Shown here piece by piece: positions 26,801 to 64,000 of a stretch of 64,000 nt of DNA. Position 1 is the stretch's first letter, and each line of letters begins with the position of its first letter. This DNA comes from Chrysomallon squamiferum. Lineage: Eukaryota > Animalia > Mollusca. The notes under the pieces were generated by a model. The model did not search any database. It was not told where the DNA came from and saw nothing but the letters and a program-made list of their open reading frames with translations. A program made the translations under genes and the position numbers. The DNA lies in assembly GCA_012295275.1 (NCBI GenBank), contig CM022676.1, positions 682,001 through 746,000 on the forward strand. The letters are read 5' to 3'.

Positions 26801-28705
26801 TTTTGTATGTTTAGTTTCAGTATTTTTGTTTTGTTTTTGCTTGTTTGTAGTTTTGGGGGTTTTCTATGTTTAGTTTCAGTATTTTCTGTTATTTTCTATG
26901 TTTAGTTTCAGTATTTTCTGTTATTTTCTATGTTTAGTTTCAGTATTTTCTGTTATTTTCTATGTTTAGTTTCAGTATTTTCTGTTGTTTTCTATGTTTA
27001 TTCAAAAACTGAGTTATATTTATCTGTCAACACTGTTATATTTATAATGCTGAGTATTTGCAGTTTTAACTTACACATTTTCTCCACCCAGTCTCGACAA
27101 CAGCAGATGATTAGAATGATAAAGAGAACAACCAGAATCAAAACAACAATGATGATGATTGCAATCATTTCAGCACTGAATGATGATGCACCTGTCGCAG
27201 CTCCAGCAGTGGCTGAAAATAAATAAAAATAAACATGGAAAGTTGTTGCTGATGATCATGATGATATTTGATAGTGATGTATAGTGTCATATATAGATAG
27301 CAGTATTAGTGATATTATGGTGTATTGTCTGATAGTGATGTATAGTGTGATGGTAATAGTGATATTATGGTGTATAGTGTGATGGTAATAGTGATATGGT
27401 GTACTGTCTGAGAGTGATGGTAATAGTGATATTATCGTGTATGGTCTGATAGTGATGTATAATGTAATGGTAATAGTGATATGGTGTACTGTTTAATGTG
27501 GTGTGTATGTATGTATATTTATGGGTTTTGTCTTGTATACTGTTACTGTACAGTGTTCATGTAATTTAGTGCAACATGTTATTATAATAGTGAATGAGAA
27601 ATACAAAAGCTGCATGAAGAAAAACAAAACAAACACTGTTCAGTCCTGTGTTAAAACAAACAGTGACACTGATCAGTCCTGTGTTAAAACAGTGACACTG
27701 ATCAGTCAGTCCTGTGTTAACACAAACAGTGACACTGACCAGTCCTGTGTTAAAACAGTGACACTGATCAGTCAGTCCTGTGTTAACACAAACAGTGACA
27801 CTGACCAGTCCTGTGTTAAAACAGTAACACTGATCAGTCAGTCCTGTGTTAACACAAACAGTGACACTGATCAGTCCTGTGTTAACACAAACAGTGACAC
27901 TGATCAGTCAGTCCTATGTTAAAACAGTGACACTGATCAGTCAGTCCTGTGTTAACACAAACAGTGACACTGATCAGTCCTGTGTTAACACAAACAGTGA
28001 CACTGATCAGTCCTGTGTTAAAACAGTGACACTGATCAGTCAGTCCTGTGTTAACACAAACAGTGACACTGATCAGTCCTGTGTTAACACAAACAGTGAC
28101 ACTGATCAGTCAGTCCTATGTTAAAACAGTGACACTGATCAGTCAGTCCTGTGTTAACACAAACAGTGACACTGATCAGTCCTGTGTTAACACAAACAGT
28201 GACACTGATCAGTCCTGTGTTAAAACAGTGACACTGATCAGTCAGTCCTGTGTTAACACAAACAGTGACACTGATCAGTCCTGTGTTAACACAAACAGTG
28301 ACACTGATCAGTCAGTCCTATGTTAAAACAGTGACACTGATCAGTCAGTCCTGTGTTAACACAAACAGTGACACTGATCAGTCCTGTGTTAAAACAGTGA
28401 CACTGATCAGTCAGTCCTGTGTTAAAACATGAACTGCAGCAAATACAATGTGTAAAACACACATACACTGCAGTGAACACAAAGTCTGATAAAAATAAAC
28501 ACACACATCTATTATACTTATGTGTTTGTTTATGCTTTGTACATTTGTTTATTCATGCGTGTGTGTAAATATGGAATGAATTATCAAATTATCAGAGAGA
28601 GAATTTACATGTCACAATGTGTTTATAAAGGTTTAAAGGAGTCTTACAAATACAGATATTCCTTTCAAAAGTTATAAATAACATTTTATACCTATATATT
28701 AAATC

Positions 28706-39037: not shown

Positions 39038-42000
39038 CACAGAGTGAGAGAGAGACAGAGAGAGAGAGAGAGTGTGTCAAAGAGCACAGAGTGAGAGAGA
39101 GACACACACCACTAATATTATTATTAAAGTACCTGGTACACATGCACAGAGGAGTTGACCATTATTTTCTTTACAGCTGGCTCCATTCAGACAGTAACCA
39201 GGGTAACAAGAAACAGCCTTTGCCTCACAGTACTGTCCACTGTACCCTGTTACCATAACAACAGTAACATTTGTCAGTGACATCAAATTTTGAGATATAT
39301 CAAAAACATAAATCATGTAACAATCCAGTTTTTAAAGCAAAACAAAATTTTAGCGGTAGTTTTAGCAAGATGGATGTAAAGTGTAACAACAAGGAAACGT
39401 AGTTTGTTTTTATAAATTTCTATAAATGACATTTTGATCCTACACATATAATTACTATAAAGACACAAATTTAGCATAAGACTTTATGTAATTTGTTTAA
39501 GTTTTGAATTATAACCATTTGCACTCGAGATTTACTAGTTTATATAGCAGTTATTATCAAATTGTATCTATAATCTACACCTAGAATATATAAGTTTAAA
39601 ATTATTATACAAAAATTAATAACTAAATTATTAAATTATTATTTGAATCTATTATTGGCAAAAATATATAACTCTGTCATTATTATATACAAATTTATTA
39701 TTTTAATGCACTTGTAACACATTTTGATAAAACTACTAAAAGAATTAATTTATCTTGAAATTACAAATGCGACTGATTATGGTTACCAATCAGAGATACT
39801 AATCCTAATTATGTACAGTTAATAAATATTATAAAATAACCTGTGCATTTGTTTTACCTTGAGCACACTTGCAGGTTGTTTCAGCACCATTAAAAGAACA
39901 TCTGCTGCCAGGACCGATACAAGGATTAGCAAGGTCACACAAGTTGTCATACGTCTCACAGACATCGCCTCTGTACCCCGGCTTACACCTGTCACAACAC
40001 AAAGTGTTAATCAGACAGACAGAAACTGAGGTTACACCTGTCACAACACAAAGTGTTAATCAGACAGACAGAAACTGAGGTTACAGCTGTCACAACACAA
40101 AGTGTTAATCAGACAGACAGAAACTGAGGTTTACAGCTGTCACAACACAAAGTGTTAATCAGACAGACAGAAACTGAGGTTACAGCTGTCACAACACAAA
40201 GTGTTAATCAGACAGACAGAAACTGAGGTTACAGCTGTCACAACACAAAGTGTTAATCAGACAGACAGAAACTGAGGTTACAGCTGTCACAACACAAAGT
40301 GTTAATCAGACAGACAGAAACTGAGGTTAGCTGTCACAACACAAAGTGTTAATCAGACAGACAGAAACTGAGGTTACAGCTGTCACAACACAAAGTGTTA
40401 ATCAGACAGACAGAAACTGAGGTTTACAGCTGTCACAACACAAAGTGTTAATCAGACAGACAGAAACTGAGGTTTACAGCTGTCACAACACTGTTAATCA
40501 GACAGACAGAAACTGAGGTTAAGCTGTCACAACACAAAGTGTTAATCAGACAGACAGAAACTGAGGTTACACCTGTCACAACACAAAGTGTTAATCAGAC
40601 AGACAGAAACTGAGGTTTACAGCTGTCACAACACAAAGTGTTAATCAGACAGACAGAAACTGAGGTTTACAGCTGTCACAACACAAAGTGTTAATCAGAC
40701 AGACAGAAACTGAGGTTACAGCTGTCACAACATAAAGTGTTAATCAGACAGACAGAAACTGAGGTTTATGCACAGATAATGCATTACCTCTCACATTACA
40801 CACACTATATATGAAAAATTTGAGAATGTATTTGTGTTTTTTCCACTGTATAAATAAACTTTATTATGTCCTGTGGATATATTTTTTATCTGATAATTAT
40901 TAAGCAGGAGAGAAATACATGTACTTCACATTCATCAGGCATGTACTTTATTTACTGTAGAAATAAATTTTACACCAAATTAGTATCATTTTAGTTTCTT
41001 TTCACATACTTGTTTAGGTATATCAGGAAATAATTTTTATACACATCCTACCAAATATAACTTATCTTACTTCTACACCTGTCAGAGCTGATAAAACATT
41101 TTCTAATCAGAAATAAGATTCACTTACTTGCAGAAGTAGGTGTTGTCAGTGCTGATGCACTCTGCGCTGTTGAGACAGGGGTCAGGACTACAGAAGTTGG
41201 TCTCGTGCTGACAGTCAGGTCCGTGGTAGCCGAGGGGACACTGACACGTGTACAAGTCTCCGTTAGTGACACACGTAGCTCCATGGAGACACGGGAAACT
41301 GTCACAGTCCGTGCGTCCAAACTGAATTTCAAAATAATGTTACATCACTGACAAATCAGCCATGTTTTAACAGACAATATCAGAATATCAGTGATGTATT
41401 TTATTCATTTCTCTTGTTATTAAGTTTATTCAACACTTTAGATGGAGACACAGAAGTTCACTGAGGCCTGCAGAACAGCAGAGAGTGAGGCAAATTTTAA
41501 ATTTAAAGTTTGTCAATTTTCTCTTACAACCGATTAAGATTTGTTAATGTTCTGGAAAATATTAGTGACAAAGTAGTGTGATAAATGTTGTGGATATTAC
41601 TTTCTGTTCAGTTTTTATTAATTTATTTTGTCACACTACTTTTTATTTTTCTTCGTCTTCATCTTCATATTCATTTTTTAATTTTTCTAATTTTATTTTA
41701 TTTCTCTGTTTATCAAAACTATAAAATTACCCATATGGACTAAAAATGACCCACATCAAATCTGAAAGAGTTTTGTTATTTAAAGAAGAAACTTCTAGGA
41801 AAATATATGCTGTACACACGTAGTTCTGTGTGATTCATTTCCTACTTGTAATCTACTTACTGTACACGTTTTGCCGTAGTAGCCGTCGGGACAGACACAG
41901 TAGAAGTCGTTTAGCAGGTCGACACACCTGGCTGATGACTGACAAGGATTTGGTCTGCAGTTGTCTACAAGATCCTTACAATATTTACCTGTGTAAGTAT

Positions 42001-43931: not shown

Positions 43932-46749
43932 TCATTCATGCATGCACACACACACACGAACATGCATCCACACACACACACAAACACACATACACATGCA
44001 CACACACACACACACAGGGAAACTGTAAAAGAATAAGAAAAAACTGGTTTATACTTCACCACAGATGAAGGCACACAGAATGTAATATTCTTACTGATAT
44101 TGTGAGAATAAACTGTCAGCAAAAAATAAACTAACTGATATTTGCAGGTTATTTCTCACCTATATTTATCTCACAGTTTTCACCAGTGTAACCACGGTTA
44201 CAAATACATGTTCTGCCAATGTTGCCATATTCCACGCATCGTGAGTTGAATGCAGAACAAGGTTCCAGAGAACATGGACTCCGCCTAATTTCGCACCTGT
44301 AATTGCATCAAAGAAACACGTCTGTTTTTATCACTGATTTCCTATTCCAACTGTCTACTTCCATAAACAACATACAAAATGTCTACTTGATTCTTTTGAA
44401 CTGATAATAAACGTAGACATGTTTGTTTTTGTTTGGGGGGGGGTTTGTTTGGTTTTTATTGGCTTTTTTGTGGTTTTTGTTTTGTTCTGAATCTATAATT
44501 ATAAATATTTAAAGTGTAGTTATAAATATTTAAAGTGTATATTATAAATATTTAAAGCTGTAATTATAAATATTTAAAGCTGTAATTATAAATATTTAAA
44601 GTTTATATTATAAATATTTAAAGTGTATATTATAAATATTTAAAGTGTATCTTATAAATATTTAAAGTGTATCTTATAAATATTTAAAGCTGTAATTAGA
44701 AATGTTTAAAGCTGTAATTAGAAATGTTTAAAGCTGTAATTATATTTGATGCTATAATTATAAATATTTAATGTGTAGTTATAAATATTTAAAGTGTGTA
44801 TTATAAATATTTAAAGCTGTAATTATAAATATTTAAGGCTGTACTATTAAAAACTCACAGGCTGCCGGTGTAGCCGCTGAAGAGAGGACAGTGACAGGTG
44901 TATGATCGCAGTTTATCCTGACACACGCCGCTGTGACGGCATGGATTAACTTCACAGTCGTTGGCATCCTTCTCACAACGCTGCCCAGTGATTCGACCTT
45001 AGAACGTGTTAGTAACATCAGTTGTGAATTGTCATGTCAGAAAATATTTTTCAAGTTCTAATAAAACCTTGATTTTAATTTTACCAGAACATTATATACA
45101 TTATGCCAAAGTAATTCATTCTCAGTCTGACTATTAAATTAAAAAGAAATAAAATATTTTGTAAAATTATTATTATTATTATTATTATTATTTTACAAAA
45201 TTTAAAAAGTTTTAAAAAAAATCATTGTCTTTATAAATATTTATATTTTCTTCTTTGATGAAAAGAAATTATCTATTATTTTGTTTTAGCAAATCTCATA
45301 TAAGAAGGAATATAATTCATATTAAAAACAGTCTACACTGCTATGAAATATTAGTGGTTTGAAGCTGCTGTGTAAGTGCGTACTGGTGCCGCAGTAACAT
45401 GCGTATGATCCGTTTGAGTAGTTGACGCAGGATCCTTTGTTGTAGCACGGCCGAGAGCTGCACAGGTCCAGCAGAGTTTCACATGTCCGTCCAGTGTGAA
45501 CTGAAACAACAGCAGACACACTTAAACATCTACATCCAGTGTAAACTGAAAAACAGCACACACACTTAAATATCTACATCCAGTGTGAACTGAAACAACA
45601 GCACACACACTTAAACATCTACATTCAGTGTGAACTGAAACAACAGCACACACACTTAAACATCTACATCCAGTGTGAACTGAAACAACAGCACACACAC
45701 TTAAATATCTACATTCAGTGTGAACTGAAACAACAGCACACACACTTAAATATCTAAACATCTACATCAGTGTGAACTGACACACTTAAATACACACACT
45801 TAAATATCTACATCCAGTGTGAAAACAACAGCACACACACTTAAATATCTACATTCAGTGTGAACTGAAACAACAGCAGACACACTTAAACATCTACATC
45901 CAGTGTGAACTGAAACAACAGCAGACACACTTAAACATCTACATTCAGTGTAAACTGAAACAACAGCACACACACTTAAACATCTACATTCAGTGTGAAC
46001 TGAAACAACAGCAGACACACTTAAACATCTACATTCAGTGTAAACTGAAACAACAGCAGACACACTTAAACATCTACATTCAGTGTAAACTGAAACAACA
46101 GCAGACACACTTAAACATCTACATTCAGTGTAAACTGAAACAACAGCAGACACACTTAAACATCTACATTCAGTGTGAACTGAAACAACAGCAGACACAC
46201 TTAAACATCTACATTCAGTGTGAACTGAAACAACAGCAGACACACTTAAATATCTACATCCAGTGTGAACTGAAACAACAGCAGACACACTTAAATATCT
46301 ACATTCAGTGTGAACTGAAACAACAGCAGACACACTTAAATATCTACATCCAGTGTGAACTGAAACAACAGCAGACACACTTAAATATCTACATTCAGTG
46401 TGAACTGAAACAACAGCAGACACACTTAAACATCTACATTCAGTGTGAACTGAAACAACAGCACACACACTTAAACATCTACATTCAGTGTGAACTGAAA
46501 CAACAGCAGACACACTTAAACATCTACATTCAGTGTGAACTGAAACAACAGCACACACACTTAAACATCTACATTCAGTGTGAACTGAAACAACAGCACA
46601 CACACTTAAACATCTACATCCAGTGTAAACTGAAACAACAGCAGACACACTTAAATACACACACACTTAAATATCTACATATATATATATTTTGATATAC
46701 TATATACAGTTGAATACATATACTTAAACATCTACATATATATACATAG

Positions 46750-46786
<37 letters not shown>

Positions 46787-49700
46787 CTTTGATAGTCTAC
46801 ATACATACTTAAATACATACACAAATGCACATACATACTTCAGAATGCTATATATATATATATATACTCAAATACAAACATATACATACTTTGATATACT
46901 ATACACATACTTAAATACATATACACATACAAATACAAACATATATACATACTTTGATATACTATACACATACTTAAATACATACACACCTACATATATA
47001 TACATATTTAGATATATATATATATATATATATATACAGTCAAACCTGTATATAACAGCCACCCTCAGGATTCACAAAAGAGGCCATTAAAAGACAAGGG
47101 CACAGAGAAGTATTAAGTATGTTTTTAGTCAGTGGAACATAGTGGACTTTCCAAATTTTGAACTGCTGTGACCCTGGCTGCTATAGACAGGTGACTGCTC
47201 TGTACAGATCATTAGAGAAGAAAATGCTTCAAGAGGTTATTCGTTAGAAACAAATATTTAAAATTCTGTAATTAGAATTAAAATTCTATATATAGAACAC
47301 TATAATTAAAGCTCTATGTTTAAAACTCTACATCTGTAATTAAAAACGTATTTAAAAGTGTGTTCAATGGAAAGATTGTCACAGCTGTGTGTGGCTGAGT
47401 GCAGACGTACTGGGTTTGGAGCAGATGCACTGGAAGTCATGTCCTGCAACAACACACTGACCTCCGTTCTTACAGGGGTTTGGTTCACAGAAATAAACAT
47501 CTACAAAAACAAATCATTTTGTAAAGAAATCTACTTAAAAAGTGTTGAACACAAATCTTTTTTAAATATTTATATATGATAATAAATAATGACAATGATT
47601 GTGAAGCATTAATTATAGCCAAAGAAACCAATAAAAAACAAAAAATAATGATAAAAATAACAACGATATTGTGAACAAGTCTAAAGACTGAAAGACAAGT
47701 CTATGAAAACAAATTTTAATTACAATTAATTAGTTTTATTTATAATTATGAAAATAATGAGATCATCACAATGATAGTGTGATGATGAGGATACTGAAAA
47801 TAAAAGCTAAAAAGTTGAAAAATATGAAGATTACAATAGGAAAACAACTATATATTTTTCAGTATGTCAGTTAACAAGGAATGAAGTAAGTATTAGGAAC
47901 TGATGATTACTGTTAATAAATCTAAGTACATTTTTAATAAACTCAAGAACTTTATGGTTAGTAAAGATTGGTAGAGTTTCACCTGCTGAAACACACTGTG
48001 TCTGTGATGTTGACTGTTCTTGTAATGTAGTTTCATAGTCCATGCACTCTAAGCAGGTGGTCTGTCTAGCAAGGGGCTGATAGAAACCTCGTGGACAGAA
48101 CTGACAGGGTGAAAATCCACTGCTAGAGAACGAACCAGGTGAACACTGCACTGAAATGTACATCAAATACACATCACTGAAATGTACATCAAATACACAT
48201 CACTGAAATCAAATACACATCACTGAAATCAAATACACATCACTGAAATCAAATACACATCACTGAAATGTACATCAAATACACATCACTGAAATCAAAT
48301 ACACTGCACTGAAATGTACATCAAATACACATCACTGAAATCAAATACACTGCACTGAAATGTACATCAAATACACATCACTGAAATCAAATACACTGCA
48401 CTGAAATGTACATCAAATACATGTCACTGCTTTGTTTTAATTACAGCAAAATAAATTAATTATAAATCAACCATGCTTTCAAATGTATTAGCTATATAAA
48501 TATCCTGAATTTTTACATTATTTAACATTTTAGTTTAGTTTATTATATTATATATTTTTTAATTTGTTGTATGTTTAAAAAAATTTTAACCGAAAAAAAA
48601 CAGAACAAAAAAAAGCAACATAAATAACTAAAACAAAAGTAATATGTAAAATATCTCTTGGCTATGAGCTAGAAACAAATAATAAGTTGAAAATATGTAA
48701 AATAAAGAAAACTTTTAAACCATTTTTAACATGAAGCAAAATTGTAATATGGAAATATAAACAAAATGTATTTAGATAATGTTTATTAAAGATGTACCAC
48801 AAATATAAAAAGTTTGCTAAGACTTTTCACATATTTCAGACCACACAGTTTTATCTAAAATATGCAGTAATATGTTTACATAGAATGCTGAGGCAAAGTT
48901 TGACTGCAGTGAGGGATGTTTTAAATAAAGTATTTTTCACATAAAGATCTAACTAATATTTTAAATAAAGTATTTTTCACATAAAGAACTATGTAATATT
49001 TTAAATAAAGTGTTTTTCACATAAAGATCTAACTGATGTTTTAAATAAAAGTGTTTTTCACATAAAGATCTAATATTTTAAATAAAGTGTTTTTCACATA
49101 AAGATCTAAGTATGTAATGATGTAAATAAAGTAAAGTCTCACTCTGACACGCTGACACTGAGGTCTGCCTCGGGCCCCTGGTGAACGTGTTAGGGGCGCA
49201 GTTCTGACAGAAGGTAGGAGACACGCTGTATGTGTCGGGGGGACACATGTTACACGGGGCGTATCCTGTCGACGAGAACATGCCCTTAGGACACACTCCT
49301 GTAACACATCAGTAACATTAGTAACAGTAATAATGATAATAATGATAATGATGATAATGATAATGGTGATGACAACAACAACAAAAACAAAAATAACAAT
49401 AATAATAATAGTAATAATAATAACAATAATAACAAATGAATGGGAATAAAAACTGCCTTTAATAAATCTATTACATTTAATAAGTAACTTTCATTTTAAT
49501 ATAATAAAATGTAAATATACAGTAATAATAATACTAGTAAACATGATAATAATAATAAAAATAACTTACTAAAACATTCAGATTCACTGGTCAGTCCTGG
49601 CTCTGAATTGGTCATTCTAGCCATTGACGGACATTGCAGACAAACATTGCTGACCTCTGGGTCTCGATACTGTCCCACGTTGCACTTCACACAACTTCCA

Positions 49701-52004
49701 CTTCCTGAACCCACATAACCGGCTGGACATGACACTGAAATTCACACATTTAGTAATACAACTTGAAACACAGCACTGTCATCACAACACAGTGCATAGA
49801 ATATATTAACTTTAGTTGACACTCCAAAATAAAACTGACATCATAATAAAGACAAAAACAAATAGTAATATTAATAATAAAGTTTTCATCAACATATTTT
49901 TCTAAAGTATAACTGTTTCTTTCATGGTTGGTGTAGATTTTAATTTACTTGTTTAATTTTTGCTGTTTTTAGAGTCTTACTTGGATGATGCTAAGTGAAA
50001 TTTACTCCATGTTAAATAAAAACAATCAACTCACGAGATTAACTCAGAATTGTGAAATTAGGTAAATCAATGGACATCATTATCAAATTTATAATGCAAC
50101 AACAGAGAAGCAAACTGTAGACCTGTATGTGTAACATTAGTAAACACTACTGCAATGAAACATACCACATATCAGTGAACTGTCAGCAGCAGTCCGGATC
50201 TCTGCAGCACCATAGCAACCAGTGCCATCTTGTGTGGTTGCCACGTAGGTTGCCAAGGACGACGCAGTACATGTGTTTACAGGACTGAGCTTGGACACAG
50301 AGGACACTGATGATGTCATCTGTCTGAAGGCGTCTCTGATCTGCTGAGAACACTGCTGGTACGTTGCTGACGACAGACCCGATGGCTGCAGTTCAACGGT
50401 TACGTCTGCCGATACCTGACATCAAATCACACGTTTGTGTTAGACACTGGCAGGCTTACAAGTAATTCCTTTTATTATTCCCATATACAAAATATCCATG
50501 ATATAATTTAACTAATTTTATTAAAAGTAATGATCTGTTTACATTGTGTTCAAATTCATATTTCTTACATTGCAATATCATATTATGTAGTATCTGTAGA
50601 CATTTGGCGGTTTCAAACTAAATATAAATATAGGTTATGTATATTTATATTGGATACTGAAACATGCCAATGTCTATAAACCTGGGGCCCTTGTGATGTG
50701 TTTGGCCTAGTTCCCACAAGTAGTACATCCTGCCCTGGATGTGATTTCACAGTCAACTTACATATATTGTTATTATGATTCTTCTTCTTATTATTATTAT
50801 TAATGTTTTTGGTGGGGGTTTTGTCAACATGATTTATTTTATTGATTATACATAATTATTATTTTTATTTTTTTTTTACTTATAGTAGTATAGCACACAC
50901 AATATTTTGTCTGATATTTCTGGAAAAAATCTTTTTCACATTAAAATATCAACACTGAAGAAATTAAATATCATAAATTAAAATAAACAGAACTGATTAC
51001 TTAATGACAGAGATTAAATTAATGACAGCGATGAAAGTAAATGTTATAAAATAAATAAAATGTGTAAGATAAAAGAAAAGTAAAAACTCACACCACCGAA
51101 TGTTGACATGACAGTGACAGCGTGGAAGTTGCTTCTGTCTGGAATGGCGACAGCCACGTGGGGGATGATGTGGCTGCAGAGTGACGTCAGACTGCTGACA
51201 AGAGTTCTCAGATTGGCTGTCAGTTCTTGTTGGTATGACGACCTGCACTCATCGGTTACCGTGGTGAACGTACCAAGTGAGTATCTCAGGCGAACGGTTA
51301 CTCTGTACGCTGTTGTATCTTGTTCTGAAAACAGAGTACAAGTGTTTAGTTGCTGCAGACCTCTGCAATTCTCTGCACTGAAAGAAACGTTCTATTGTTC
51401 CAAATATTTGATTAGGTCAAACAGATTTGTAGTAAATACTTTACCATCAAAGTGTCTTAGCACAAAGACCACAAAAATAACTTAAACCTGCCAGGAAAAC
51501 TCTGGAGATGATTAATAATTCATGCTCGTTTCCTCTCCGTCATTATTCTATTTATAAAGATTTAATTTAACCTTCTTAATTATAAGAATTCTTTGTCACA
51601 AAGATAAGATAACTCTGTTTTAGTTGACATTCCTGATTACAAGAAGAGGGTTCAGTAAGAGAAATAATTACAAAGCTCACTCACGGACACAAACCGGTTC
51701 CTGTCGGTTCCAGTCAGAACCTGCAAAACACTGCAAGTCGACACTGGAAAGCTTCTCATTTTCATAGAACACGTAGCCAGGAACACACTCTACCGTGCAT
51801 CTGTACCCTCCCCCCACGGTCAAACACGACGTCCGACCATTCTTTATATTCAGGATCCATGACTGACATTTTGGAGCTGAAACCAGAAAACAAACTAATG
51901 TTCAAGTGTGAAACATAGGAAATGAAACAACTAAAACATTAAATAAATCATTAAAACTTATGACTTGGCTATATTAAAACAAGGGGTAGACGAAATAGTA
52001 AAAC

Positions 52005-52090
<86 letters not shown>

Positions 52091-55000
52091 AAAAAATAGC
52101 CATCAATTTGATCAAAATTTGATGCCGGCACAAAAGGAATCCATGATACGTTTTGTCAATATTGTGAACCGCTGTTGTCTGTGATCATGAAGTTTAAAAC
52201 AAAAGCACGCTTACAACAGAATCCCGACAAGATCGCACCAGTATGTAGAGGGGAGGGTCGATGGGAAGAACTTAATAAATTTGGAGGATTTATATTTAAA
52301 TAAAATAAAGTGTCTATTTTATGTTTCATCTCTGTTTACTTATTCGAAATGTCTTCCTTTCTCATAGCATTCTCAGTACTAGGCCTAATACTTGAGTCTT
52401 TGGGACATACATTCAAGGAGTTGGGCCCGGGCTCCAGCAGACGTTTTCACCTATTAGATCACACAGCCTGTTTTGAAAACAATTACTATAAAGCTTGATG
52501 AAGATTACTCATCAACAAAACTGGAGTTAACTTCACAGAAGGGTCAGTTGCTTAAATCTGTGAATGGATTCATTTATCTCTTTGACAGAAACTTAAGCAA
52601 TGGAAATAGTTCTTTGCGCTGTACTTCAAAAAAATGTCCAGATCGGATACATTTGAACAATAATCAGGTGACAAATGTAACATCACAATCATGTACAATG
52701 AAGTGAAGCAGTGTCTATCTACAGTCTGCGACTTCTCGAGATACACAGCGACTTTTGATTGAACAACAGCAAGATTCGCTCAACTTCCGAAATATGCATC
52801 CACTGAAAGAATGACAGAACTGCAGTCGTGGACTACCTATGATGTATTTCTTATAATGTGGAACTACACGTTTGAAGTTTTTGTTATTTGTTTATTAGAC
52901 AATCTGAAAAAACTGAAGTTGATGACTATCTTGGAATGCTTATAATTTATAACTAACGTTTGAAGTCTATGATTTGTGTCCTAATGTTTCTTAAATAATA
53001 ATTGAAATAATAACAAATATTTTACTGTCTTACGTCGTCCCACCAACGAAAACTCATAAAACAAAGTAAATAGAAAACTCATAAAACAAAGTAAACAGAA
53101 AACTCATAAAACAAAGTAAATAGAAAACTCATAAAACAAAGTAAACAGAAAACTCATAAAACAAAGTAAACAGAAAACTCATAAAACAAAGTAAACAGAA
53201 AACTCATAAAACAAAGTAAATAGAAAACTCATAAAACAAAGTAAACAGAAAACTCATAAAACAAAGTAAACAGAAAACTCATAAAACAAAGTAAATAGAA
53301 ATATAATAATAAATATCTGTAAAAAACATATCTTTATCAGACAGAGGGATGTTGAAATTATAAACATCTTGACAAGTAATTGATCAAATGTTTTTTATAA
53401 ATTAAAATATCAGTTTTCCGCTTTCTAAATATATTCATGCTGCATTCTGTTAGTATAAAAATATCACAAAACTGAACAGTTAACACTGATTTATTGTTTA
53501 CTTTCAAACCACTGAGTTATTTAAGCCATTTTCTGTAATAAATACATGCATATTAAGATTTATCTGTAACAAGTATATGTATAATGTTTTACCTGTAACA
53601 AGTATATGTATGATGTTTTACCTGTAACAAGTATATGTATGATGTTTTACCTGTGACAAGTATATGTATGATGTTTTACCTGTGACAAGTATATGTATGA
53701 TGTTTTACCTGTGACAAGTATATGTATGATGTTTTACCTGTGACAAGTATATGTATGATGTTTTACCTGTGACAAGTATATGTATGATGTTTTACCTGTG
53801 ACAAAGTATATGTATGATGTTTTACCTGTGACAAGTATATGTATGATGTTTTACCTGTGACAAGTATATGTATGATGTTTTACCTGTAACAAGTATATGT
53901 ATGATGTTTTACCTGTGACAAGTATATGTATGATGTTTTACCTGTGACAAGTATATGTATGATGTTTTACCTGTGACAAGTATATGTATGATGTTTTACC
54001 TGTAACAAGTATATGTATGATGTTTTACCTGTAACAAGTATATGTATGATGTTTTACCTGTGACAAGTATATGTATGATGTTTTACCTGTGACAAGTATA
54101 TGTATGATGTGTTACCTGTAACAAGTATATGTATGATGTTTTACCTGTGACAAGTATATGTATGATGTTTTACCTGTGACAAGTATATGTATGATGTGTT
54201 ACCTGTGACAAGTATATGTATGATGTTTTACCTGTAACAAGTATATGTATGATGTTTTACCTGTAACAAGTATATGTATGATGTGTTACCTGTGACAAGT
54301 ATATGTATGATGTTTTACCTGTGACAAGTATATGTATGATGTGTTACCTGTAACAAGTATATGTATGATGTTTTACCTGTAACAAGTATATGTATGATGT
54401 TTTACCTGTAACAAGTATATGTATGATGTGTTACCTGTGACAAGTATATGTATGATGTTTTACCTGTGACAAGTATATGTATGATGTTTTACCTGTAACA
54501 AGTATATGTATGATGTTTTACCTGTGACAAGTATATGTATGATGTGTTACCTGTGACAGTGAACTGTACGACGCACTTTTCTTCGTTCCCCTCGTCGTCT
54601 GACGCTGTAATCAGCACAGTGTGCAGTCTGCCGATGCTCAGTTTGTCCAGTGTCAGCTCTTTCACCGAGTATGACAGAATGACGTTGCCGGAGTTGTCAC
54701 TGGCCTGCTCAACAAAGTCAGATGCATCAACAGTGATGACGTCATCAGCACTTCGAATCCGAACTTCAGACCAGTTCTTACATGTCAGTTTAGGAGGCTC
54801 AGTGTCTGAACAAAGCATAACACAGAGTAACAACAATCATCTCTAAAACTGTTTAACTTTAGAAATGTGAAAACCACATGTGAAAAAAAATATGCAAATC
54901 TGCAATTTCAGTACATCAAACAATACATAAAATAAATACAACATATTTGTGCAGGTCACTACCTGAATTTCAAAGAACTGCAAGTGGATATCTTGAATTA

Positions 55001-57351
55001 CATATTGCACTAAATTGTAATAATTATAACAGTATAAGTTAACATTCAGAACAGTCGTTTAAAGACTCTTAACTGTATTTTCTATAAATCTTTTTACTGA
55101 ACCACAACTCATATAATATTAGTTTAAAAAAAAACAAATAAAATCAAAATGTGTTTTTCTAAAATAATGATGACATGACTGAAAGTTTGCCATTGTGAAA
55201 CCAAGTTTACCATCATGTAAAAAAAATCCCATCTATTTCAAAACATTTTATTTCAAATTAATTACTGTAAAACACGTGTATAAATGTTTACCTCGTGTTT
55301 TGATTTTGACGATGCACGTTCCCACGTTGTTTTCGTGGTCTGTTGCTGTGTAGACGACGCGCATGTCACGTGACACAATTGTGGAATAGCTCTGGAAGTT
55401 GACTGGATCAACTGACCTGCTTCTGATTAAACCGCTGTTGTCTGATGGGATAGGCTCGGGATACATGGCGGGTGAAAACTGATTGACAGTTACCACGCCT
55501 ACTGGACAACTGTAGAAAAATGGACTTTGCTGGTCTGAAATTTGAAGAAGTCATTTCTTAATGGTTTATTAAGTGTACAATGTACATAATTTAAATATTT
55601 GTTGATACTAAAGTAGAGTCATTTATAAAGTTGCTTTAAATAGTGCATTGTTTCCTTCACAGGTAATTTAATATTTATAGTCAACACGTAAAAAAATATT
55701 TTTTAATTTTTCATTTCAAAAAGAAATATGTGTGTGTAAGAAGTAACAGTGAAGTGAAATGCGCTCACCAGTACAGTCTGGGCGAGTTGCGAGTCTGGTC
55801 TGTGTATGTATGTATGTGTATGTATGTGTGTGTGTGTATGTATGTGTGTGTATGTATGTGTATGTATGTATATGTGTGTGTATGTATGTATGTGTGTATG
55901 TATGTATGTATGTATGTATGTATGTATGTATGTATGTGTATGTGTATGTGTATTTATGTATGTGTATGTATGTATGTGTATGTATGTGTGTATTTATGTA
56001 TGTGTATGTATGTATGTGTATTTATGTATGTGTATTTATGTATGTGTATGTATGTATGTGTATTTATGTATGTGTATGTATGTATGTGTATGTATGTATG
56101 TGTATGTATGTATGTGTATGTATGTATGTATGTATGTATGTATATGTATGTGTATGTATGTATGTGTGTGTATGTATGTATGTATGTATGTGTATGTATG
56201 TATGTGTATGTATGTATGTGTATGTATGTATGTGTATGTATGTGTGTGTGTGTAAGAAGTAACAGTGAAGTGAAATGCGCTCACCAGTACAGTCTGGGCG
56301 AGTTGCATTCCAGCCTAAAGCTTGTTTCTCTGGAAACCAGACACATTTCAGTGGGTAGGGGTTTGTTGGGAGGAACCCATTTCTCTCACACCCGTATCTT
56401 ACCAGCGTGTGTTCTTCATATGTCGTGTATTTCTCATCAAGTTGATAGCCACCAGGGGGCGTGCCAGGATCCAGGCAAGTAGGACCTGACAGAAATGTAT
56501 TATTTTGGCAAAGCTTGCTAATTTCAGTGCAGTAAAAGGTACTGATCCCAAAAACCTAAATAATTCATTTCTATTTTTGCTTTAAAAAATATTAACAGTA
56601 GAGAAATGTTGAATTACAAATGTAATTTAATTGCAAAACATTAGGAGACCAAGAGACTGAGAAAAAAACAGCATCTTTCATGTTACATTATAGTGACATC
56701 AACAACAAGGAATTTTTTATTTTGATATTTCGTAACCGCGCTGAACAAACTGTCACGACGTTGTAGATTGTTATAGAGTTGGACTGGCAATGTACACAAC
56801 TCTACAATACATCTACAACAGATCGTCAACATCATACAAACCAAACACAATAACTTGCTTCAAAATGGCAGCTGACAAGTCAACCATGATAACCAGGCTG
56901 TAAACTGTTTTGTGAAATTATAAACATCGTTTTATTTTCTTACCAGGACACCTCAGATCTCCGAAGTCCCACTTCCCATTTGAACTACAACGTACACTGC
57001 GGTCTCCTGCGCTGCTGTGACCCTCCAGCGTGAACCACGGCGTCCGACACTGGAACGTGAAAGAGCAGTTGTAGGTTGTACACGAGTAGACAAACGTCAA
57101 CGCGCCGTGTTTGGGTTCAGGAACACCGCAGTTTACATCTGTAAAACACAGTATAAATATTCCTTGTAGACTGAGTGTGCGTGATTTTGATTGACTCATC
57201 CTTTCTAGTCTATTATCATAATACTACCAATCAATGTCATCACAGTATTTTCTATAAAGTTTTATATTAAACTAGTTTATTTTAATTAGACATAAATTAT
57301 ACAATTACTTTAAACACACATGTACATGAAAAACTTTCACATACACACTCA

Positions 57352-57404
<53 letters not shown>

Positions 57405-60400
57405 TCGCAACTCGCCCAGACAGTACTGGTGAGAGCATTTTACACGTGTGTGTATGTATATGTGTGCTCTTACCTATTTTAATTATTACTTATAATAATC
57501 ATTATTATTTTTTGTTCTCACCGAAACAGGAGAGGTTTTCAGAAACAGCTTTGTAGCTGTCGGTGTTCCTGTGGTAGACACATCGCCGTTTCGTCGCGTA
57601 GTTTCCCACGCCTGCCAGCGTGCACGTCAGGTCAAAGTAGTCGAGGTAGGGTATCGGGGTTTTAGGCGAAACCTGGGCGATGTTCGCCGTGTTCTGCCGC
57701 GGCACCAGGGCCGGGCACTGGGCAGCTGAAACAAACATCTTCATTAACAACATTACATACATCGAGATCAGAAGTAATCTGAAAGTCATTCAAGGTCTCA
57801 TTTTAGTAAAATTCAGGAACTCAAATGTTACAACTTTTTACAGCAATTGCTGTAACATGTAATATTAACCTGAAAATGGTGTAAAAACATTGGACTTAAT
57901 GAGGTAAAAAGATTTTATTTTATCTGACAAAATTATAAGAATATCCAAAGTTATATAATTACAACAATTCAAGTATAATTCATAACCTTAAACAAATAAT
58001 TTCTAAGTTTAGAGATATTCTAGCAGCTGTAAGACGATGAAGAGATTTGAGTTCACTCTACACGTCATCATTTCTTACAAACACAGGTCGGCGGGGACCC
58101 GATCCACCGTCCGTCCGCACACGTCATCGTGTCGACACCGTGCGCCACGTAGCCGACGTCACACAGGTACGTGATCTTCTCACCGGACGAAAACTTCTTA
58201 CTTGAAGTCAAAGCGTAACCGTTAGGAACTGTGAGCACTGGAGCGGAACATGACACTCCTAAAAGTTTAAAACATTCCATACAAATAGTTACCAGTTTAA
58301 TGAATGTCAGAATAAAGTTGTTTCATTTAATTTCTTCTTTTTTTTTAAATCAGTTTATAACTGTTAGGTTTAAATGGCGAATGATTTAGCATGTAAGCAT
58401 ATGCAATTTATAAATAATTCATTAAGTAATAAACATAATTTAAAAAGCTTGTTGATAATAATAATCTTATAATTAACATTTAAACAAACTCTGTAATGAA
58501 CTACAAGCAGCACTCACTGACACAGGAGTGGTTGGCGCGGTGTGTTTTAAACGGGTCTAGGTCACCGAGGCTGACTTCGCCCCGGTATAACACGTAGTTC
58601 TGTTTACACGAACACTCGTAACTTCCGGGCGAGTTGAAACAGAAATGATCACAGCCGCCTTTGTTTACAGCACACTCGTCAACGTCTAAGGAACAAAACA
58701 ACAACAAGTTTTCTTACAGTTCTTGCATGTTCCTCCGTATACACACGTTGACATATCAGTTGTGCAGTACTTTTCAAATGGTAAAATAAGGAAACTCATA
58801 CTAAAATGTATTTAAATCAAGAAACTGAGGTTGAAAATGTACAACATCTTTTATTGATATAACTTGAATAATTTAAACTAGAACATGTAACACTGAACTT
58901 CATCACAAAATTTTAAATTTTATTGTTAAAAATTGTAAAATTACTTTATCAATCTGCTGTGCTCTGTGATGACAGTACAACTGTAAACAAGCGGTCACTA
59001 CGTACCTATACACTTGCGAGAGTCGTAACTAGCAACTTTGTAACCTGCACGACAAGAACAGACAAAACTTCCAACTGTGTCCTTACACACGTGATCACAG
59101 CCCGCCACGTGACTCACACATTCATCTACGTCTGAAAATAGTAATAATAATAATAACAGTAACAGTTATAGTAGTAACAGTAACAGTTATAGTAATAATA
59201 GTAACAGTTATAGTAATATAACAGTTATAGTAATAACAGTAACAGTTATAGTAATAACAGTAACAGTTATAGTAATAACAGTAACAGTTATAGTAATAAT
59301 AGTAACAGTTATAGTAATAACAGTAACAGTTATAGTAATAACAGTAACTATAATGATGATGATGATGATGAAGTTTGCACGACAGGTGAAAAGAAGCCGC
59401 TGACTGATGACTTACTGACGCACTCCCCGGGTCTGTCCAGTCCACACTGGAAGTTCTGTTTACCAACCACGTTGAACCCGCTGTTACAGATCAGCGTCAG
59501 CGTGTCGCCCACGTGGAGCTGCACGTGCTGGGAGACTGTTCCGTTTGCTACGTAGGGGACAGCGCACCTCCTCTCTAAAATAAAAAATATTTATAGTGAG
59601 ACAGACAGACAGACAGACAAAACACACTACAACAGAGAGAGCCAGTGACAAAGATAAAAGAAATGAAAGAGGAAATGTGCTACTGACGTAGTAATAGTAG
59701 CAGGACAACACATATCACAGCTTTTGAAAAAGAGGGTGAAAACTGGTACATGCACTGATGTGACAAGTCTTACTCAGACACGACGGCACCGACTGTGACC
59801 AGCTGCCACTGGAACACACCAACGTGGCAACTCCAGCAACCTCATACCCACTGCTACACTGAAAGCGCACCACAGACCCTTCATCATAGCCATTTCCGTT
59901 CAGGACAACGTAGTGGCCGTTGTTGACGGAATGAAGTGCAGGACATCGCCGTGCTGAAAGATGAATATTGATACTTGTGTCACAGCAAGAAAAACAGGAA
60001 AAACAGCACTTTATAAATAAAGAAAACAGTTTGTATTAGTTCAGTACAGGTTTGTACACACTTGCCTTTTGCAGTAAAACTGTTCTGTCATAAATTACCA
60101 GTACGTGATATGTAAAGTTACTTTTAGATGAAGATATGCAGTTATCTGTATAATCCACCCAGATGCTTTATATTAGTTATTTGAAATAAAATGCTTATCT
60201 TCTCTTAACATTTTAATAACTTTATAAGACAAATATTAAAGTACATGAAAATCTGCTTATCAGGATCAGTAATATGAACATTCAGATGTGTATACCTCTA
60301 CATGAAATTGTGTACTACAGGTGCATGAAGGTGTGTATTACTGTACATGAAATTGTGTATTATATGTGCATGAAGGTGTGTATACCTCTACATGAAATTG

Positions 60401-61399
60401 TGTACTACAGGTGCATGAAGGTGTGTATTACTGTACATGAAATTGTGTATTATATGTGCATGAAGGTGTGTATACCTCTACATGAAATTGTGTACTACAG
60501 GTGCATGAAGGTGTGTATACCTCTACATGAAATTGTGTACTACAGGTGCATGAAGGTGTGTATACCTCTACATGAAATTGTGTACTACAGGTGCATGAAG
60601 GTGTGTATTACTGTACATGAAATTGTGTATTATATGTGCATGAAGGTGTGTATACCTCTACATGAAATTGTGTACTACAGGTGCATGAAGGTGTGTATTA
60701 CTGTACATGAAATTGTGTACTACAGGTGCATGAAGGTGTGTATTACTGTACATGAAGATGTGTATTACATACATATATGAAGTGTATTACATATATATAA
60801 AGATGTGTATTACATATATATATATGAAGGTGCATATTACATATATATGTGGTGTGTATTACATATATATGTGGTGTGTATTACATATATATGTGGTGTG
60901 TATTACATATATATGTGGTGTGTATTACATATATATGTGGTGTGTATTACATATATATGTGGTGCGTATTACCTGTGCATGAAGGTGGTGTACCCCACTC
61001 AGCTGTACTGAGGCAGGTAATAGTCGAGGATGATGACGTCAGAGTGTATCCAGTTTTACAGGTGTAGCTGGCAGTGTCACCAGAATACAGTCCCGATGTA
61101 GGTAACAGGTAAGCGTTTTCTACAGCAGGCGGCAATCCACAGAACACACCTGATAAACAAAGTAATTAATTAATAAACTCACTGTGTGCATAATTATATA
61201 AGAAATTTCAGAAATATAACAACTTAATTAGGTTTCCCTTATTATGTCTATCTTTATTTTTTCAATTAATATAAAATATTGTGGTAAACAGGCAGAGTAA
61301 GAAAGACTGACAGACAGGCTAGTAATTGAATTCACCAGAAAAAACTGTACAGGATAAATCAGGGATTTAAAAAGGATCTTGTAATTCACTCTTGTATAA

Positions 61400-61430
<31 letters not shown>

Positions 61431-64000
61431 GAGAAAGAAATCAGTTTATAGTAATTATTTGTTCAGTGTGTGTAAAATTAAAATATTATGATATAAAAAG
61501 TAAAATTACGTGAACAAGTAGGTATCGGGTTTTTATCCCACTTCCCGCCGAGCAGACAGGTCAGTTTTAATGTCGACTGTAGATGCATTGATTTTGTTGT
61601 AAACCTGTAGTTGTTGATACATGATATTGTAACAGCGTCGCCGACGTAACGACTGTACGGGTTTGGCTCTGTTTTCAAAGTTGCGTCTTCAATCAGAGGA
61701 CAGCCTGGAAAGAGATGAAATATTTGACCTAGAGAACACTCTACACCTCTCAGATCTATGTTAACTACAGAACACTCTACACCTCTCAGATCTGTGTTAA
61801 CTACAGAACACTCTACACCTCTCAGATCTGTGTTAACTACAGAACACTCTACACCTCTCAGATCTATGTTAACTACAGAACACTCTACACCTCTCAGATC
61901 TATGTTAACTACAGAACACTCTACACCTCTCAGATCTGTGTTAACTATAGAACACTCTACACCTCTCAGATCTATGTTAACTACAGAACACTCTACACCT
62001 CTCAGATCTATGTTAACTACAGAACACTCTACACCTCTCAGATCTGTGTTAACTACAGAACACTCTACACCTCTCACATCTGTGTTAACTACAGAACACT
62101 CTACACCTCTCACATCTGTGTTAACTACAGAACACTCTACACCTCTCAGATCTATTTAACTACAGAACACTCTACACCTCTCACATCTGTGTTAACTACA
62201 GAACACTCTACACCTCTCACATCTGTGTTAACTATAGAACACTCTACACCTCTCAGATCTATGTTAACTATAGAACACTCTACACCTCTCAGATCTATTT
62301 AACTATAGAACACTCTACACCTCTCAGATCTATTTAACTACAGAACACTCTACACCTCTCAGATCTATGTTAACTACAGAACACTCTACACCTCTCACAT
62401 CTATGTTAACTACAGAACACTCTACACCTCTCACATCTATTTAACTACAGAACACTCTACACCTCTCAGATCTATTTAACTACAGAACACTCTACACCTC
62501 TTAAATCTATTTAACTACAGAACACTCTACACCTCTTAAATCTATATTTACTATCACACTATATATTATTATGGCCACAGTTTACATAGATAATCAGACA
62601 AGAAGGCTCCAAACCACAGCTTATGATAAATTCTTTACTGCTTAGCAGAAACTGATTCTTTATATAAACCCTCCCATTGTCAGGAATATAGAACATATAT
62701 TTATAAAAAAAATAAAACAGTAAGACAGATGATATCGTTCATCCAGAGGTACAGCTAAATAAATCAATTTTGTTTTCTAAAATATATATATATTTTTAAA
62801 AAATTAAAAATTACTATTAGAGAATGATTCATATTCATAATTATATTAAACGTTGTTAATAAATCATTACAATGATACTTATAGACAAACTAACAATGTA
62901 AAAAGTAAGCAGTTAAAAATACAATTTAAAAACACTCAATGTACACACCAGCAGAAAACGTGGCTCGGAATCCTCGTGCTGTGCCCACTGCACTTGTCTT
63001 GAAGTGAACGAACAATTCCCCAGTTTTAGAATCAACTGGCTGCGGGAGAGCATTTCCAGTGAATCCTTTACCCGAGAAGAGTGGTGCCCCGTACGTGTTA
63101 CTTCCCTGAAATACCTACAAGCAGCACAAACACCATGTTAACTAATTATATTACAGTGTTACTTCCCTGAAATACCTACAAGCAGCACAAACACCATGTT
63201 AACTAATTATATTACAGTGTTACTTCCCTGAAATACCTACAAGCAGCACAAACACCATGTTAACTAATTATATTACAGTGTTACTTCCCTGAAATACTAC
63301 AAGAAACCAGATTTTAAGTCACATTCATATGTAAACTTTGATCCATGTTTTCATGTTTTAAATACTTTTCAATTCCTGAGTATTTTTTTAAATAATTCAA
63401 CAAAAATAAGCAAACCTGCAGAAAGTCATTTTTTTCAATGGCGAACGGAGGACTGAATGTCAGTCTGACAGGAGAGTTGTTAGGGGAGGTAAGGTGCCAG
63501 GTACAAACTAGGATGCTGGGATACGATCCAGAAGAGTAACCAGGGGAGGTAATTATTCCTGATGGGTTTGATGAAGAATAAGTACAACCTTGAAAATAGA
63601 AAGAAAATGTTTTCTGTATCACTAACATAAAAATACAATAAATATGTAACGATAATAGTTTAATTAAATGTTTTATATCAGTTCTATGTCGCCCAAGAAA
63701 GTAATTACAAATGCATACATTAATATTAAATTGAGTTAAACCTTTGCTGGAAATCAGTACAGTATTTATTATGATGATTAACTGTCTTTTTATTTAAAAA
63801 AGAAAACTATTACATAATCAAGTTCCTTAAGCAAAGTGATTCATTTTGCTAGCACTAATATTTACTTCAATTTGTTTCCTTTAATTTATAATCCATGAAT
63901 TATATTTTATAAAAGAAATATTAAAAGACAAATTACTGTGAACAAAACTGTATTTTTGTCAGCACGTGTACACCTACCCGCTCTGTACAGTAACAGAAAG
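23511..64000 (-). CDS. Large single-pass CUB/sushi(CCP)/EGF/HYR/GCC2-GCC3/pentraxin-LamG membrane protein, Uninflatable/SVEP1-like; 5' part outside window
   Basis: About 46 GT-AG exons on minus: >64000-63978, 63588-63416, 63105-62949 (CUB), 61704-61510, 61149-60973, 59953-59774, 59574-59416, 59131-59006 (sushi/EGF), 58685-58518 (cbEGF), 58258-58079, 57725-57522, 57138-56944, 56485-56285 (sushi), 55534-55292, 54805-54551 (HYR), 51876-51685, 51324-51092, 50415-50166, 49734-49570, 49298-49143, 48150-47983 (GCC repeats), 47500-47411, 45500-45384, 44997-44859, 44296-44160, 43782-43564, 43029-42793, 41988-41861, 41321-41128, 39988-39858, 39246-39133, 38818-38678 (EGF array), 38395-38227, 37769-37530, 36906-36619 (pentraxin/LamG), 36137-36006, 35725-35630 (HYR), 35463-35263, 34782-34545, 33027-32851, 32279-32118 (GCC), 28822-28784, 27212-27075 (TM), 26434-26374, 25829-25689, 23868-23511 (stop). 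Confidence 0.88.
25985..26382 (-). repeat. Degenerate ~24-bp minisatellite containing the donor of exon 26434-26374
   Basis: Plus-strand unit TTTACCTGTCAACACTGTGTTATA, which reads TGTTGACAG|GTAAA on minus; ~16 diverged copies. Confidence 0.8.
26860..27000. repeat. ~33-bp T-rich minisatellite
   Basis: TTCTATGTTTAGTTTCAGTATTTTCTGTTATT repeated ~4 times, with degenerate copies upstream to ~26650. Confidence 0.75.
27075..27212 (-). CDS. Transmembrane-helix exon of the Uif/SVEP1-like gene
   Basis: Reads ..[34 protein letters not shown]; hydrophobic stretch followed by CCC and charged residues; AG and GTAAGT boundaries. Confidence 0.85.
27640..28428. repeat. Intronic minisatellite with higher-order ~202-bp periodicity
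   Basis: Variant 26-34-bp units CAGTGACACTGATCAGT(CAGT)CCTGTGTTAA(CAC)AAA; identical ORF starts at 27846, 28048 and 28250 show a 202-bp super-period. Confidence 0.9.
29545..29670. repeat. (TTA)n microsatellite
   Basis: Direct reading; encodes the spurious poly-Asn ORF. Confidence 0.9.
30520..30980. repeat. 17-bp minisatellite
   Basis: ATCACAGTGTCTGC(A/T)CT units, ~27 copies; source of the spurious Cys/Ser-rich ORFs. Confidence 0.9.
38124..38221. repeat. 26-bp x~4 repeat abutting the donor of exon 38395-38227
   Basis: GTCA(G/T)ATAATACAGATGTTAAGTAAT units end ~4 nt from the donor. Confidence 0.8.
38865..39105. repeat. (CA)n/(GA)n compound microsatellite
   Basis: Direct reading; similar CA tracts at ~3498, 33499, 35115, 43877 and 57353. 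Confidence 0.9.
39983..40768 (-). repeat. 49-bp x~16 minisatellite containing a splice acceptor
   Basis: Unit TTACA(C/G)CTGTCACAACACAAAGTGTTAATCAGACAGACAGAAACTGAGG; the first copy holds the acceptor (39989-39990) and 6 exonic nt. Confidence 0.92.
42215..42765. repeat. ~29-bp x~19 minisatellite ending ~27 nt from the donor of exon 43029-42793
   Basis: CATGATGTAAATCTGTATACCCAGTAAAA units. Confidence 0.9.
44495..44848. repeat. ~22-bp AT-rich minisatellite abutting the donor of exon 44997-44859
   Basis: TTATAAATATTTAAAG(C)TGTA(A/T) units, ~16 copies. Confidence 0.85.
45491..46680 (-). repeat. 45-bp x~26 minisatellite containing a splice acceptor plus 10 exonic nt
   Basis: Unit CCAGTGTGAA|CTGAAACAACAGCAGACACACTTAAACATCTACAT; real acceptor at 45501-45502. 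Confidence 0.93.
47037..47198. mobile_element. Degenerate Tc1/pogo-type MITE
   Basis: TA|CAGTCAAACCTGTATATAACAGCC at the left end and imperfect inverted copy GGCTGCTATAGACAGGTGACTG at ~47177-47198; inserted in a TA run. Confidence 0.5.
48143..48430 (-). repeat. 20/27-bp variant minisatellite containing a splice acceptor
   Basis: ACACTGCA|CTGAAATGTACATCAAAT and ACACATCACTGAAATCAAAT units; real acceptor at 48151-48152. Confidence 0.88.
48918..49110. repeat. ~40-bp x~5 repeat ending ~30 nt from the donor of exon 49298-49143
   Basis: TTTTAAATAAAGT(G/A)TTTTTCACATAAAGATCTAA units. Confidence 0.8.
52009..52087. repeat. (AG)n microsatellite
   Basis: Direct reading. Confidence 0.95.
52095..52930 (+). 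mobile_element. Probable Mutator-like (MULE/FLYWCH) transposon remnant
   Basis: ORF 52473..52706 reads [19 protein letters not shown]...[12 protein letters not shown], resembling a FLYWCH zinc finger, antisense to the host gene. Possible imperfect terminal inverted match ATAGCCATCAATTT (~52096) with AAGTTGATGACTAT (~52916), 12/14. Confidence 0.5.
53049..53300. repeat. 25-bp x10 minisatellite
   Basis: AAAACTCATAAAACAAAGTAAA(T/C)AG units. Confidence 0.9.
53565..54558 (-). repeat. 29-bp x~34 minisatellite containing a splice donor plus 8 exonic nt
   Basis: Unit TTAC|CTGT(G/A)ACAAGTATATGTATGATGT(T/G), which reads TGTCACAG|GTAA on minus; real donor at 54549-54550. Confidence 0.93.
55730..56308 (-). 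repeat. ~60-bp direct duplication of an exon end plus donor, separated by a ~450-bp (TATG/TG)n microsatellite
   Basis: GTGTGTAAGAAGTAACAGTGAAGTGAAATGCGCTCAC|CAGTACAGTCTGGGCGAGTTGC occurs at ~55732-55790 and ~56248-56307. Confidence 0.9.
59140..59352. repeat. 21-bp minisatellite abutting the acceptor of exon 59131-59006
   Basis: AGTAATAACAGTAACAGTTAT units. Confidence 0.8.
60287..60987 (-). repeat. Compound 45-bp and 22-bp minisatellites derived from the exon 61149-60973 donor region
   Basis: The 45-bp unit contains exon-end GTGCATGAAGGTG. The 22-bp unit ATATATATGTGGTGTGTATTAC ends in the donor hexamer (GTAATAC on minus) and abuts the real donor at 60971-60972. Confidence 0.82.
61732..62545. 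repeat. 36-bp x~22 minisatellite starting ~26 nt from the acceptor of exon 61704-61510
   Basis: AGAACACTCTACACCTCTCAGATCT(A/G)TGTTAACTAC units. Confidence 0.92.
63095..63301 (-). repeat. 61-bp x3.4 repeat containing a splice acceptor plus 11 exonic nt
   Basis: GTGTTACTTCC|CTGAAATACCTACAAGCAGCACAAACACCATGTTAACTAATTATATTACA at 63095, 63156, 63217, 63278; real acceptor at 63106-63107. Confidence 0.92.

Follow-up and report, generated by a model that had tools for sequence, protein, structure and literature searches.

A 29-bp minisatellite carrying 34 copies of a 5' splice site in a mosaic cell-surface protein gene of Chrysomallon squamiferum

A 29-bp minisatellite that begins inside an HYR-domain exon of Chrysomallon squamiferum repeats the 5' splice site of that exon, together with the last bases of the exon itself, through the first part of the following intron. 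The array is probably a junction-spanning minisatellite in which, as we infer from the reading frame and from precedent, the first, exon-attached donor alone is likely spliced, with the 33 copies behind it leaving with the intron. The locus is a clean, unusually large example of a kind that has already been described, and in all likelihood it arose as a side effect of unstable repeats, is neutral or carries a slight cost, and is one of numerous junction-spanning arrays in this genome. All positions given below refer to the window (i.e., the whole analyzed stretch of 64,000 nucleotides, which corresponds to positions 682,001 to 746,000 of contig CM022676.1 in GenBank assembly GCA_012295275.1).

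Host gene and anatomy of the array

The array lies in a large gene for a mosaic cell-surface protein, which is read on the - strand and extends from roughly 64 kb to roughly 26 kb of the window. Pfam detected two CUB halves, Sushi, calcium-binding EGF, HYR, Ephrin-receptor-like repeats, and EGF in this gene; a weak Pfam match to laminin-G possibly corresponds to a pentraxin-type module, and an open reading frame (ORF) at 26998-27255 contains a hydrophobic stretch that by eye resembles a membrane anchor. The domain order (i.e., Sushi, HYR, HYR, Sushi-like, Ephrin-receptor-like, EGF, and weak laminin-G) presumably resembles that of SVEP1. The exon map, on which 39 introns of the gene were placed, is a heuristic one that combines a PWM, phase rules, and Pfam limits; the splice-site scores are likewise heuristic, the consensus motifs and donor weights being general values. 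Elsewhere in the window, an adjacent gene on the - strand (13900-17211) encodes a nuclear receptor (zf-C4, E = 7.6e-31; ligand-binding domain, E = 1.4e-5). ORFs at 7846-8639 (- strand) have the appearance of what we take to be a hAT-type transposase remnant; the piece of them scanned with Pfam (7846-8349) gave no match.

The HYR-domain exon (54551..54805, - strand) is 255 nt long and is flanked by phase 1 introns at both ends, as delimited by Pfam and by acceptor/donor score and phase. Its Pfam HYR match (E = 5.7e-6) extends over profile positions 3-81 of 81 and residues 1-83 of 84; the end of the profile coincides with the end of the exon, and the phase agrees with this exon limit. No homologous proteins were found for the exon at E <= 0.001 among proteins of up to 2000 residues. 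The downstream exon (51685..51876, - strand) is Cys-rich and looks Sushi-like by eye, with the acceptor tttcag|CT in phase 1, and it matched no Pfam family at E <= 0.01. Joining the two exons at 54551/51876 yields the sequence ...FTVT-A-PKCQSW..., and the exon map agrees with the intron limits (54550 to 51877) that had been proposed in an earlier, sequence-only reading of this DNA.

That reading had also described about 34 tandem AG|GT sites on the - strand and a real donor at 54550, and both descriptions were borne out. TRF places the minisatellite at 53559-54558, with 34.4 copies, 97% matches, 0% indels, and a score of 1844, and a script counted 34 occurrences of AGGT on the - strand of the array (A at 54552, 54523, and so on to 53594), spaced by 29 nt in 32 of the 33 intervals and by 30 nt in the other. 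The first AG|GT of the array is the donor that belongs to the HYR exon itself (last exon base at 54551; G of GT at 54550). According to TRF, the unit list, and a pattern search, each unit on the - strand consists of 8 nt of exon end and 21 nt of intron start: the TRF array starts 8 nt within the exon, so that the exon-proximal unit crosses the exon-intron boundary, and the last 8 nt of the exon, TGTCACAG, constitute the 3' end of each repeat unit. The locus combines a head-to-tail array of short units with a boundary-crossing first unit, two of the features by which a junction-spanning minisatellite is recognized.

Every one of the 34 sites fits TGT(C/T)ACAG|GTAA(A/C)ACA, and CAG|GT is retained in 34 of the 34 copies of the 29-bp unit. 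The most frequent variant is TGTCACAG|GTAAAACA (18 of 34 sites), followed by TGTTACAG|GTAAAACA (10 of 34), TGTCACAG|GTAACACA (4 of 34), and TGTTACAG|GTAACACA (2 of 34). The third of these variants comprises the real donor and three exact 16-mer copies of it (i.e., 3 of the 33 pseudo-donors are the same as the real site over -8..+8). Taken together, the 33 pseudo-donors (53592..54523, - strand) read CAG|GTAAAA in 28 cases and CAG|GTAACA in 5, with GT intact in all. Past unit 34, the motif degenerates to ACAG|ATAAAT, and a decayed terminal unit (53535..53563, - strand; ACAG|ATAAATC...), recognized from its sequence, marks the distal edge of the array. Units 24-31, on the other hand, are mutually identical, and this combination of near-identical inner units with a decayed edge is typical of a minisatellite that turns over internally.

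A search of the window with the 29-mer at up to 3 mismatches returned 33 matches, all within the array (0 expected from 100 shuffles); being gapless, the search overlooks the single 30-nt unit. A dispersed-repeat origin of the unit was rejected, the unit being absent from the rest of the window, and no Rfam families were found in 51000-56500. The array accounts for 992 nt of the 2,674-nt intron. The remaining part of the intron (51877..53558, - strand), as delimited by sequence and TRF, is unique sequence interrupted by another array, which has 25-bp units unrelated to the first (53048-53301), and by an (AG)n stretch (52009-52087).

We propose that a 29-base segment across the exon-intron junction gave rise to head-to-tail copies on its downstream side and that the resulting array may be kept up by continuing turnover through unequal exchange or slippage. 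The AG in every AG|GT is a copied exon end, which by chance has the consensus CAG; therefore, acceptor function is not needed to account for it. The sequence-only reading had linked the array to intron gain by duplication of an AGGT-containing segment. That model does not apply here, since the intron lies at a domain boundary and shares phase 1 with the adjacent introns; the array has only added to its length. The persistence of 33 undecayed strong donors could reflect selection; the high identity of whole units favours recent expansion instead.

It is extremely improbable that the length of the array, or the array itself, is a product of mis-assembly. In the DNA run X20 (share, 0.81), an independent short-read contig (54516-55758) crosses the boundary between the exon and the array with 3 differing letters, and array words occur at 2.4-9.4 times the single-copy depth; the variant units, moreover, stand in an ordered pattern and are not collapsed. 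What speaks for an assembly error is the depth of the array words in X20, which is 0.5-0.75 of that predicted from the copy counts in the window, and this lower depth may be due either to fewer copies (i.e., copy-number polymorphism) or to coverage bias. Among the three small RNA runs from the same organism, X21 and X23 contributed only 21-nt pieces on 54261-55800, and X22 contributed nothing; the acceptor exon was uncovered by X21, X1, X2, and X4 at 90% likeness (51600-53880). A stretch of the intron at about 52287-52432 matches X21 RNA contigs at 90-95%, with a depth of up to 278, and probably represents a dispersed repeat that is transcribed; no Rfam family was found for it.

Splice-site strength and reading frames

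The HYR exon's authentic 5' splice site, CAG|GTAACA (54545..54553, - strand), and all 33 pseudo-donors each match the consensus CAG|GTAAGT at 7 of 9 positions, a level of at least 7/9 that is reached by 12 of the 38 mapped donors of the gene. Since the real donor and the pseudo-donors are equal in strength, position, not sequence, must decide among them. We extended the exon by script to each of the 34 donors in turn and joined it to the next exon. The frame stays open through the next exon for donor 1 only. Use of donor 2 leads to a stop 19 codons past the normal exon end, and use of donor 3 leads to one at 58 codons; donors 4-8 share a stop at codon 21 past the normal exon end, which lies within the array. 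Because this codon-21 stop precedes donor 4, all later donors meet it as well. A functional protein thus needs donor 1, the sole frame-keeping donor of the 34. The earlier expectation that mis-selection would mostly cause frameshifts was right, with the addition that the in-frame extensions too reach the stop at codon 21.

Donor 1 would win because it alone closes the 255-nt exon together with the real upstream acceptor, and such a choice has a precedent in intron 7 of human F7, whose identical donors are all passed over except the most upstream one. Donors 2 and 3 are predicted to be used to a small extent, like the pseudo-sites of IFI6 and CBS; the resulting transcripts, each with a premature stop codon, would probably be broken down. 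The description of the locus as a decoy-donor array, which the sequence-only reading had offered as one of two options, is substantially correct: it fits the anatomy, the open frame of only 1 donor in 34, and the F7, IFI6, and CBS cases as presented in the accessible part of PMC1557585. A preference for the first donor is not universal: the same source, in the text available, refers to earlier experiments with duplicated sites as mutually discordant, the outcome in other duplicated-donor constructs having been the opposite.

A regulated role can be imagined for such use of pseudo-donors. If a sizeable share of transcripts used them and gave rise to mRNAs that are frameshifted or contain stops and are then degraded, the length of the array would tune the output of the gene. 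The pseudo-donors do match the real donor in strength, all 33 alternatives give premature stops, the depth in X20 hints at a differing copy number, and the nearest pseudo-sites are used in IFI6 and CBS (PMC1557585, in the part of the paper that was accessible). The extra sites are silent, however, in F7, LMNB2, PDGFA, and the amphioxus mirages, to judge from the available portions of the sources, and we regard regulated unproductive splicing as decidedly unlikely at this locus.

Another function could be exerted by the pseudo-donors while they remain unspliced. Thirty-three matches of 7/9 to the U1-complementary consensus within 1 kb could form a landing pad for U1 snRNP and, e.g., suppress premature polyadenylation or promote retention. 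The donors of the sister arrays described below, however, have decayed (GT is intact in 9 of the 15 copies next to the tail exon, and CAG is lost at the Su2 array), which argues against general selection on donor copies, and a U1 landing pad is accordingly a very improbable explanation. RNA folding gave a predicted minimum free energy of -58.4 kcal/mol, compared with -46.4 kcal/mol for shuffles (z = -3.1), with ACUUGU pairing with ACAGGU across units. RNA structure as a means of hiding the pseudo-donors was rejected, given that the centroid is nearly open and that the real donor pairs like the rest.

The second option of the sequence-only reading was a recursive-splicing ladder, in which an internal AG|GT would serve first as an acceptor and then as a regenerated donor, the intron's first kilobase thereby being removed in steps. 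In form, AG and GT are directly joined at each site, and the pyrimidine fraction before the internal AG (0.59) lies inside the range of the real acceptors of the gene (median, 0.65; range, 0.53-0.82; n = 32), 13 of which are at or below this value. The acceptor half fails nonetheless in other respects: the longest pyrimidine run before the internal AG is 3, as short as in only 5 of the 32 real acceptors, and the yUnAy branch consensus is found 0 times in the array, compared with 22 of 32 real acceptors that have one at -47 to -13. Judged by these features, the internal sites would make poor, not impossible, acceptors. The AG itself is already accounted for by the copying of the exon end. Given the minimal size of introns, the 29-nt spacing of the units is too short for single-unit recursive steps. 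The intron as a whole, at only 2,674 nt, also differs from the very long introns in which recursive sites are described in the available text of PMC6110457. A ladder would leave the final mRNA identical and is thus beyond the reach of the frame test. Since the unit includes the last 8 nt of the exon, the sequence of a recursive intermediate would resemble that of unspliced RNA from which some units are missing, and short junction reads could therefore hardly reveal recursion. On balance, the ladder proposed earlier is unsupported, and we consider recursive splicing here highly unlikely; the array is better read as a minisatellite whose exon-attached donor is used.

Other arrays at splice junctions of the window

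The same gene contains further arrays at splice junctions. We took a census of 24 TRF arrays of the gene (period >= 10, copy number >= 3, and score >= 100), from which a (CA)n run at 57338-57404, listed by TRF at period 10, was left out, and calculated expectations by placing each array at random within its own intron. Seven of the 24 arrays overlap a splice junction, compared with 1.29 expected (P of about 8e-5); 10 of 24 lie within 10 nt of a junction (2.28 expected), and 14 of 24 lie within 30 nt (4.27 expected). The seven overlaps in the gene (i.e., the 34-donor array and six others) are divided between three donor-side and four acceptor-side arrays.

On the donor side, a 22-bp array (60735-60972, - strand) has its start precisely on the GT that follows a Sushi exon (last exon base, 60973), and it is followed by a 45-bp array (60287-60769, - strand) that is a decayed derivative of the exon end and donor. 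A 24-bp array (25994-26382, - strand) spans the donor of a 61-nt cytoplasmic-tail exon. The four acceptor-side arrays, all on the - strand, contain 4 copies of the acceptor (63095-63303), 6 copies (48149-48429), 23 copies (45492-46655), and 14 copies (39983-40766), respectively, with AG intact in all of them. Each unit joins the end of the intron to 6-11 nt from the start of the following exon, and the real acceptor is in every case the final copy, which is attached to the exon.

Two local features accompany these arrays. At the EGF exon of 45492-45573 (- strand), the unit of the preceding acceptor array is 45 nt long (15 codons), and the first exon base belonging to the nearest pseudo-acceptor, 45545, is in the same open frame as the exon; on the basis of the sequence, use of this pseudo-acceptor would add 15 codons without a stop. 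Farther upstream in the gene, the 24-mer formed by the end of the exon that stops at 56285 and by its donor is repeated without a mismatch 516 nt downstream (56284 and 55768, - strand), and a (TGTA)n-like array (55801-56254) lies between the two copies.

In a second gene, which lies on the + strand at the left end of the window, a 42-bp array of 3.1 copies of GCTTCCAG|GTAAC (754-884) and a 30-bp array of 3.1 copies of A|GTAACT (4040-4132) each begin where an open frame ends. Both are probably junction arrays of the donor side, with exons that are supported by ORFs. Altogether, nine arrays in two genes of the window start or end on a splice site. Whatever the length of the unit (22-61 nt), the exonic share of a junction-array unit is always 0-11 nt.

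This pattern raises the question of why repeats gather at splice junctions. One answer would be that the junction-spanning arrays, instead of being random duplications that were tolerated, stem from a mutational process with splice junctions as its target. We consider this unlikely; if it were true, the 34-donor array would be the largest visible footprint of the process.

Comparison with known systems

Taken as a single locus, the array is ordinary. It is a trap for gene prediction and read mapping: a recursive intermediate, or RNA spliced from a pseudo-donor, would be nearly indistinguishable from an unspliced transcript that has fewer units. With 33 intact and equally strong pseudo-donors, it also provides a larger natural test of 5' splice-site choice than the human cases, in which 4-8 pseudo-sites (F7) and 25 (IFI6) are given in the accessible part of PMC1557585. 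A literature search for a genome-wide study of junction-spanning repeats yielded nothing beyond PMC1557585, PMC3087553, PMC3902484, and PMC6110457, and the comparisons that follow concern the systems treated in the portions of these papers that were accessible.

The motif at the center of the Drosophila ratchet points is AG|GT, as it is here. Recursive sites juxtapose strong 3' and 5' motifs and occur in very long introns, commonly >40 kb in flies, according to the available text of PMC6110457. Whereas a ratchet point joins a strong polypyrimidine 3' site to a donor, the AG in the present array is copied exon, is not accompanied by branch motifs, and lies in a 2.7-kb intron.

Human genes offer closer parallels. 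In the VNTR of F7 intron 7, the first 37-bp unit crosses the boundary of exon 7, and the most upstream of 5-9 identical donors is solely used (Borensztajn et al. 2006, PMC1557585, as far as the accessible text goes). Both loci thus have a boundary-crossing first unit and identical donors repeated downstream. According to the same portion of that paper, the F7 unit comprises 4 nt of exon and 33 nt of intron, whereas the unit described here comprises 8 and 21 nt, and 5-9 copies in F7 compare with 34 in C. squamiferum. The F7 donor is weak (UGG|gugggu), in contrast to the CAG|GTAA donors of the present array, which match 7/9 consensus positions, and donor use was measured in F7, whereas here it is deduced from the frame test and from precedent. 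Many reiterated donors after an authentic one are likewise present in intron 2 of IFI6 (6-16), where splicing uses the two nearest of 25 pseudo-sites, and in intron 13 of CBS, with 15-20 repeats and two pseudo-sites used; in LMNB2 and PDGFA, the authentic site alone is used (all four as reported in the accessible part of PMC1557585). While IFI6 and CBS make use of their two nearest pseudo-sites, every alternative donor of the C. squamiferum exon leads to a premature stop.

The same overall pattern is shown by the amphioxus "mirages," which, in the available text of PMC3087553 and PMC3902484, are tandem duplications of exon-intron boundaries at both the 5' and 3' ends of introns that leave splicing undisturbed; they are described there in the genes for Adh3, troponin C, the globins BflGb6 and BflGb9, and PGBD5. 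That arrays are so dense in a single C. squamiferum gene strengthens the case for mirages being frequent in some animal genomes. Both systems share the involvement of both intron ends and the occurrence of several arrays per gene; in the present window, arrays affect seven junctions in the large gene and two in the + strand gene. The mirage units in the parts of those papers that were accessible measure 10-160 bp and are mostly present in few copies (e.g., 3-6 in BflGb6), whereas the arrays described here reach up to 34 copies.
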